A stretch of 64,000 nt of DNA from Tubulanus polymorphus. Lineage: Eukaryota; Animalia; Nemertea. This document shows, piece by piece, positions 20,198 through 20,508 of this stretch (position 1 is its first letter; the number at the start of each line of letters is the position of its first letter). The stretch spans positions 30,918,299-30,982,298 of the forward strand of contig NC_134025.1 of NCBI RefSeq assembly GCF_964204645.1. Reading direction: 5' to 3'. The notes under the pieces were generated by a model that ran no database searches, was not told the DNA's origin, and saw nothing but the letters and a program-made list of their open reading frames with translations. A program made the translations under genes and the position numbers.

Positions 20198-20508
20198 TCA
20201 GATTTTTAATGTGGATTTATTAATCATTGAAGTTACACGTCGATTGACACGTGTATATTTTTTGTCTGGCTCCGGTTCATCGGTCGGTCGAGGACATGGC
20301 TTGTACCAGGGGCAGCGCCAGGCTATTTTTCCTCTCTTCACAATAATACCACGTTTATCAATAGAATCAACGTCAGTCCCTTCAGGCCAAACTCCAATCA
20401 ATAACACGGCAACAACAACGAGACACCTCCGCATAGCTCAGCCACGACTGTCTATAAGTACGGCGCGCTAACCGATTGTGCCACTGGGGCTCACCAGAAA
20501 ACCTTCAT
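20198..20508 (-). pseudogene. Secreted prepropeptide copy H, interrupted by a tRNA-fragment insertion; alternative ORF 20434-20198
   Basis: The original ATG at 20508 gives MKVFW*. The insert supplies an ATG at 20434: MRRCLVVVAVLLIGVWPEGTDVDSIDKRGIIV-KR-GKIAWRCPWYKPCPRPTDEPEPDKKY... The ancestral stop appears mutated (TAA>TAT) and the proximal 5'UTR donor is deleted compared with copy I. Confidence 0.75.
20425..20490 (-). pseudogene. Truncated intron-containing tRNA-Ile(UAU) fragment (5' two-thirds)
   Basis: GCCCCAG TGGCACAATCGGTTAGCGCG CCGTA CT TAT A [18-nt intron GACAGTCGTGGCTGAGCT] A TGCGG AGGT. It has the acceptor 5' strand, D-arm, a paired anticodon stem CCGTA/TGCGG and an intron at the canonical 37/38 position. 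The T-arm and 3' acceptor strand are absent. Confidence 0.88.

Follow-up and report, generated by a model that had tools for sequence, protein, structure and literature searches.

How does a fragment of a tRNA come to lie inside the signal peptide of a secreted-peptide gene, and what becomes of a gene that takes it in? Both questions are raised by copy H, one of nine minus-strand paralogs that form an array between positions 10150 and 21800 of the 64,000-nt stretch of Tubulanus polymorphus DNA analysed here (the window). We think it probable, though well short of certain, that the insert in H, which reproduces the 5' part of the animal's own tRNA-Ile(UAU) letter for letter, arose when the nuclear precursor, still unspliced, was reverse-transcribed by target priming. 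On the same reading, H is still spliced, its old start opens a frame of only five codons, and any protein made from it would depend on an ATG derived from the tRNA.

On the minus strand, H reads TTCT, GGTG, 64 unique nucleotides, a second GGTG and TCTC, at the coordinates given in Table 1. The extra 68 alignment columns occur in H only (1 of the 9 aligned paralogs), and the window holds no second copy of the insert, the best other match being 11 nt. A preliminary description of this DNA had placed an insert of about 65 nt between duplicated GGTG motifs; the insert and the duplication stand, and the size is corrected to 64 nt plus 4 duplicated. The same description took the insert for an intron-containing tRNA-Ile(TAT) fragment rather than a mature tRNA, a reading that the 18-nt intron at 37/38 and 68/68 identity to a donor gene bear out. 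The TAT anticodon, the 37/38 intron and the anticodon-intron pair, for which the cited part of PMC8479045 gives the rule in intron-containing tRNAs, are all present. The anticodon stem forms 5 of 5 pairs (one of them G-U) and the D stem 3 of 4. The D-stem mismatch, A12-C23 (position 12 is window position 20479), is also present in the multi-copy donor contigs and therefore belongs to the gene family itself; it does not reflect decay of the insert. The A at 20491 corresponds to tRNA position -1 and matches the donor. At the other end, the GGT microhomology that had been proposed in the variable loop is there: tRNA positions 45-47 coincide with the 3 nt that open the 3' duplication copy.

Standard searches did not recognize the fragment in context. 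ARAGORN missed it in the window, as did Rfam on larger stretches. Given the 68 bases alone, Rfam aligned them to positions 1-46 of the tRNA model as a 3'-truncated match, weak alone at 12.8 bits and E 1.9 against a gathering score of 29. Free folding of the insert gave no cloverleaf, as expected of a fragment, and a z of +1.0.

Table 1. Features of copy H, its insert and the insert-free paralog I, by window position
Feature	Position	Strand	Remark
5' GGTG copy of the 4-nt target duplication	20492..20495	-	last G is also the donor letter at -2; 1-nt ambiguity
Unique insert, 64 nt	20428..20491	-	matches pre-tRNA-Ile(UAU), -1 to position 44
tRNA 5' exon	20453..20490	-	anticodon TAT; covers positions 1-37, the D loop being one base longer; includes the A-box region but no B box
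tRNA intron, 18 nt, between 37 and 38	20435..20452	-	anticodon-intron pair C32:G (at -3) intact
tRNA positions 38-47	20425..20434	-	38-40 are the new ATG; 45-47 (GGT) common with the start of the 3' duplication; likely priming site
3' GGTG duplication copy	20424..20427	-	donor has T against G at 20424, so the shared stretch is 3 nt
Old start, 5-codon ORF MKVFW-stop	20491..20508	-	new ATG follows 56 nt downstream
New ORF from the tRNA-derived ATG	20198..20434	-	78 aa in the window haplotype; Pro at signal -1; family stop read through
Putative poly(A) signal, AATAAA	20216..20221	-	X4 contig ends here; window haplotype stop 16-18 nt beyond
Intron removed in the X4 contig, 505 nt, GT-AG	20517..21021	-	from the X4 contig alignment
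Non-coding first exon of H	21022..21061	-	homologous to regions upstream of paralogs b and d; no ATG
TATA-like position	21091..21100	-	paralogs b and d have TATAAAA here; H differs at two bases
Paralog I	21607..21798	-	intact 63-aa ORF; insert-free reference for the target site

Where did the fragment come from? Four sequencing runs cover the region (X1 to X4; two samples from one study, used as contigs only). Record 10 of X2 (393 nt) is identical to the window at 68 of 68 positions over 20492-20425, and record 4 of X1 is identical over 20490-20425. Both contigs then continue into the T-arm and the 3' strand of the acceptor; read by eye, their ends beyond the match form a T stem of 5 pairs and an acceptor stem of 7 pairs. 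The 26-nt remainder of the tRNA beyond position 47 was found only in these donor contigs, whose flanks extend 164 and 230 nt, the 164 nt of X2 record 10 being unrelated flank. A genomic tRNA-Ile(TAT) that matches the insert, intron included, thus exists in X1 and X2, as the preliminary description had required. At the sequence level these contigs are the decisive evidence for the tRNA identity of the insert. In X1 the tRNA gene body has a depth of 131.8 against about 32 for single-copy sequence, or about 4 single-copy units. From depth, there are about 3-4 identical donor tRNA-Ile(UAU) genes, a small real gene family, and it is this family rather than a SINE that the depth identifies as the source. 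The 0 differences in 68 nt place the divergence between insert and donor below about 4.3%.

The donor match reaches 20492 in both X2 and X3. The X3 record, which matches 20492-20449, represents a second Ile-TAT-like locus with a different 5' flank that diverges four bases into the intron; its contig ends 27 nt after the divergence, and the locus may be a gene with a different type of intron or one more truncated copy. Elsewhere in the window, a degenerate tRNA-Val(TAC)-like sequence at 48400-48473 (+) was called by ARAGORN and not by Rfam. Behind it, at about 48535-48570 (+), lie a fragment similar to an A box and a run of T; the two stretches may represent tRNA copies in decay or the head of a SINE.

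Is the insert real in the animal, and is it present in RNA? Record 24 of X4 spans 20218-20514, with both insert junctions in one contig, and differs from the window at 1 position over 20380-20518. It is joined to 21020-21061 across a GT-AG intron. H therefore appears to be transcribed with its insert, provided that X4 is RNA, as its splice implies; the RNA nature of X4 is inferred from this junction, the library type not being on record. Paralog I has no X4 cover, which says nothing on the expression of I. The splice also bears on the state of the gene, since H is 10 nt short at the splice donor of the I type and the upstream exon bypasses this loss. X4 and X1 together reveal a second H haplotype that also carries the insert. 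Over 20218-20423 it is separated from the window by 6 substitutions and one indel of 5 nt, and it shows neither the cleavage-site Pro nor the loss of the stop. X1 is possibly from the same source as the window, and the X4 contig could mix alleles. The suggestion that H may simply be dead holds only in part: in the window haplotype, Pro at -1, stop loss and donor loss are all real, but the second insert-bearing haplotype is free of the first two, and the upstream exon in X4 makes up for the third.

An X1 contig that skips 68 nt (20424-20491) looked at first sight like an empty H allele. Paralog I is identical there and explains the contig, and a k-mer depth model weakly favors both haplotypes being inserted: the depth of 44.2 compares with predictions of 42-44 for two inserted haplotypes and of 50-52 if one were empty (fit 0.29 versus 1.16, a weak separation). 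No empty H allele was found among the contigs of the four runs. No X1 contig bridges the 3' junction, and the X1 junction contigs were presumably lost through graph simplification. The skipping contig and the missing bridge are what could be said for an assembly chimera, yet the former is expected from paralog I, the observed depth fits the model with both haplotypes inserted better, and a single spliced X4 contig crosses both junctions almost without difference, which makes a chimera unlikely. The other artefact-like reading that had been raised, that the fragment is the head of a repeated tRNA-derived SINE, is contradicted by the lack of a B box, body or tail and by an identical-sequence depth of about 4 single-copy units in X1, not hundreds. 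Taken as one alternative, chimera or SINE head, this explanation seems to us very improbable indeed.

We favor target-primed reverse transcription of the precursor. In this scheme, the strand opposite GGTG would be nicked first, and the 3' end so freed would base-pair with the GGU of the variable loop. The RNA would then be copied through the intron to the leader (-1/-2), most likely by the reverse transcriptase of a LINE making short duplications, and a second nick 4 nt away with joining of the 5' end would duplicate GGTG. Two features of the insert point this way. Its 3' end lies in the variable loop, with the 3-nt match starting exactly where the 3' duplication copy starts, and it begins no more than 2 nt from where the tRNA starts even though the donor flanks extend much further. 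A stop at the tRNA 5' end would be expected of an RNA template and a coincidence for DNA. Together, loop-internal priming and this stop favor a nuclear precursor, unspliced and with its leader, as the template of reverse transcription, although junction geometry alone does not separate an RNA from a DNA template.

Are such copies known? Tailless retropseudogenes, as described in the cited part of Noll et al. (2015, PMC5322556), are truncated in a loop, share 2-18 nt of complementarity with the target, lack an A-tail and include unprocessed tRNAs in good number. That part of the article reports them from therians, the anole lizard and, as 8 U2 copies, maize, and ties them to relaxed L1. The preliminary description had counted intron retention and the lack of poly(A) against retroposition; this argument finds no support, both being features of tailless retropseudogenes, unprocessed tRNAs included (PMC5322556, in the part cited). 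The criteria given there are a duplication of 8-35 nt, a TT/WAAAAWW target, for tRNA a precursor leader of at most 20 nt, and 3' truncation of at least 10 nt. The H insert has a near-complete 5' end, starting at -1/-2, is 3'-truncated at position 47 (at least 10 nt) with no oligo(A), and is truncated in a loop whose GGT (45-47) is complementary to the target, all as in the definition. Its duplication of 4 nt against 8-35, and its target CT/GGTG against TT/WAAAAWW, lie outside it. Like the copies described in the cited parts of PMC5322556 and PMC2912911, it appears to be a 5'-complete, 3'-truncated copy of a Pol III RNA with a single-stranded truncation site and a flanking duplication. Unlike those in PMC5322556, it combines a 4-nt duplication with a G-rich target, a non-vertebrate host and a landing in a coding exon. 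The insert thus resembles a tailless retropseudogene made from pre-tRNA and behaves as one, but with its short duplication and non-L1 target it falls outside the family definition and is not classed as one. Schmitz et al. 2004 is reportedly a further reference on such copies.

Which machine could have made it? The L2-clade LINE ZfL2-1 makes duplications of about 5 bp and often uses microhomology or annealing at its 5' junctions (PMC4245944, in the sections cited), much as seen here. Unlike the H insert, which has no LINE tail and for which no driver element was identified, ZfL2-1 copies the LINE's own RNA. Counting against the favored origin, human trans-mobilised copies were not associated with short duplications (PMC2912911, in the part cited). 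A six-frame scan of the window for reverse transcriptase motifs gave one unconvincing match and identified no source.

Two other origins have to be weighed against target-primed reverse transcription. A staggered break that already existed could have been filled from the same pre-tRNA, the copying enzyme being either a repair polymerase able to reverse-transcribe or a LINE enzyme that made no nick itself. Polymerase theta can act as a reverse transcriptase. The short duplication, the 1-nt and 3-nt junction matches and the non-L1 target all suit such patching, and LINE reverse transcriptase can use pre-existing nicks (PMC5322556, in the part cited). However, a clean duplication with neither deletion nor extra bases fits the staggered nicks of an endonuclease, and our literature search for tRNA-templated break repair found no matching case. 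We give this origin a small but appreciable chance.

Copying from DNA, which the preliminary description had left standing beside a pre-tRNA template, would have a break end invade a tRNA-Ile gene, copy 67 nt and rejoin by GGT microhomology. A gene would supply the intron and the leader letters at -1/-2 just as well as a precursor would, there are about 3-4 identical genes to serve as donor, and both ends show microhomology. Against this, the copy takes none of the donor flanks, ending at -1/-2 of the tRNA, which favors RNA. Moreover, tRNA is an abundant class of RNA, whereas its genes take up very little of the DNA. DNA templating therefore seems to us unlikely.

What kind of gene received the insert? 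Members of the array share a conserved signal peptide, an acidic propiece, a KR site (VR in paralog I) and a variable cationic tail of 28-53 aa with 0-2 Cys, several tails being Trp- or Pro-rich. None of seven array ORFs scored above the Pfam cutoff. One of the seven matched Conotoxin (PF02950) at 17 bits against a cutoff of 25.1, and a conotoxin assignment fails on this score and on the 0-2 Cys of the tails. A word search with copy g yielded two candidates, neither kept as a homologue, and a profile search of 1.84 billion proteins returned a single match to repetitive sequence, judged spurious. The best Atlas score, 0.81, is a lead only. The array is likely a new, orphan family of peptides of the host-defence type, the host-defence role being assigned by analogy. 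The closest parallel is with the myticalins, which the cited part of PMC5577615 describes as multigenic, with a conserved signal peptide and a hypervariable, cationic, partly Pro-rich mature region, as in the array. In myticalins the propeptide is C-terminal, whereas the array propiece is N-terminal and acidic, with KR before the variable tail (PMC5577615, as cited). With the propiece on the N-terminal side and no sequence homology found, membership in the myticalins fails; an antimicrobial function is suggested by likeness to them and to other hypervariable cationic peptide families.

Some array members are broken: copy a (window ~10415) lacks a start ATG, and copy c (14143-14251) stops at the KR position after 36 aa. 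H itself is a mosaic over 20925-21421, with a promoter and first exon of the b/d type (84-88% identical) and a second exon of the I type. Its TATA position has two bases unlike b and d, yet a spliced contig exists. Directly downstream of H, 18930-20012 holds a 77-copy minisatellite of a 14-nt unit. X2 and X3 contigs match 20030-20213 exactly and pass into unrelated sequence at 20213, just past the AATAAA of H, which may reflect a structural variant or a duplicate. Further features of the window are a ~200-nt imperfect inverted repeat at 24108-24307 (79%), possibly a miniature DNA transposon; a single-exon ORF of the LicD family at 46638-47528 (+) of 296 aa, whose best named relatives are from nemertean and mollusc at 30-34%; and a CWC22 exon 77-79% identical to its best vertebrate matches. 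The LicD and CWC22 similarities by themselves point to an animal outside the vertebrates, possibly a lophotrochozoan.

What does the insertion do to the reading frame of H? It had been claimed to create a TGA after MKVFW and to supply a new in-frame ATG, and both are seen, the TGA at 20493-20491 and the ATG at 20434 (tRNA positions 38-40), in frame with the remaining signal peptide. By hydropathy and the -3/-1 rule for signal-peptide cleavage, which we used for all signal-peptide calls, the new ORF has the same hydrophobic core as paralog I (3.48), and its n-region gains positive charge (MRR). The context of the new ATG has G at -3, as in 6 of 7 compared paralogs, and matches from -3 to -1. 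No other ATG lies in the 56-nt gap, a stretch that folds weakly (-13.1 kcal/mol). The old ATG comes first in the transcript and keeps the family context.

Could ribosomes reach the new start? Reinitiation downstream of an early stop is an established process. In the cited part of PMC10275272 it is favored when the stop lies near the first AUG, and distances of 39-42 and 79-140 nt are given. H has a 5-codon first ORF, the 56-nt gap and an in-frame downstream AUG on the spliced contig, and some reinitiation or leaky scanning at 20434 is plausible from these features. The arrangement is like scenario 3 of that article (PMC10275272, as cited), in which the stop falls a few codons past the first AUG and a downstream in-frame AUG could keep partial function. 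It is unlike it in that the stop and the new AUG (tRNA 38-40) come from one and the same insertion and that the restart in H is a prediction from sequence. The tRNA splicing endonuclease is unlikely to cut the mRNA, the mature domain that it recognizes being incomplete (PMC8479045, in the part cited). On the second haplotype, restart would be predicted to give a precursor with a cleavage site of the family type and the family stop. The window haplotype is likely decaying, given its Pro at -1 and its stop beyond the AATAAA.

Is the tRNA-derived ATG, then, the working start of a secreted peptide, a functional rescue kept by selection on the second haplotype? We consider this doubtful. In its favor, the second haplotype keeps a family-type cleavage site and stop together with the insert, this same haplotype is the one in the spliced X4 contig, and the charge gain, unchanged core and matching start context also count for it. 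However, an in-frame junction is a 1-in-3 chance, the old ATG is met first and in family context, and survival of the mRNA should need no rescue, its sole exon junction lying upstream of both starts. The pro-region has also drifted. In ungapped comparison of H with I (20330-20590 versus 21688-21880), the intron is identical at 47 of 49 positions and the signal region at 48 of 51, but the pro-region at only 27 of 43, which suggests accelerated coding change or patchy conversion. The H pro-region has a charge of -2 against -4 to -10 in the family, most of its acidity being lost. Selection is not seen statistically: lineage-specific changes between the H haplotypes, polarized by eye against the paralogs, number 6 versus 2 (p 0.29), and coding changes 4 versus 1 (p 0.375), so that no sign of selection on the haplotypes emerges (p 0.29-0.38). 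We judge that H, rather than being an innovation kept by selection, is most likely a weakened copy that its redundant array can do without.

What does the insert in H mean for the capture of tRNAs by genomes? Our literature search, with most subscription journals outside its scope, found no tailless tRNA copy from an invertebrate and no start codon donated by a tRNA. The finding now concerns one locus in a redundant array. A clean, young invertebrate example with a 4-nt duplication nonetheless suggests that other machines also capture nuclear pre-tRNA. Screens that require duplications of at least 8 nt would miss such retrocopies, a point that can be checked in any invertebrate assembly. The fullest version of the story has a small likelihood in our judgment: that a non-L1 machine in an invertebrate made a tailless-type retrocopy of a pre-tRNA from which a secreted peptide gene has taken its new 5' leader and start codon, the same insertion ending the old frame and giving the ATG for restart, with the haplotype encoding an intact precursor expressed and maintained. 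If restart at the tRNA-derived ATG proves true, a tRNA would have given a protein its start codon.
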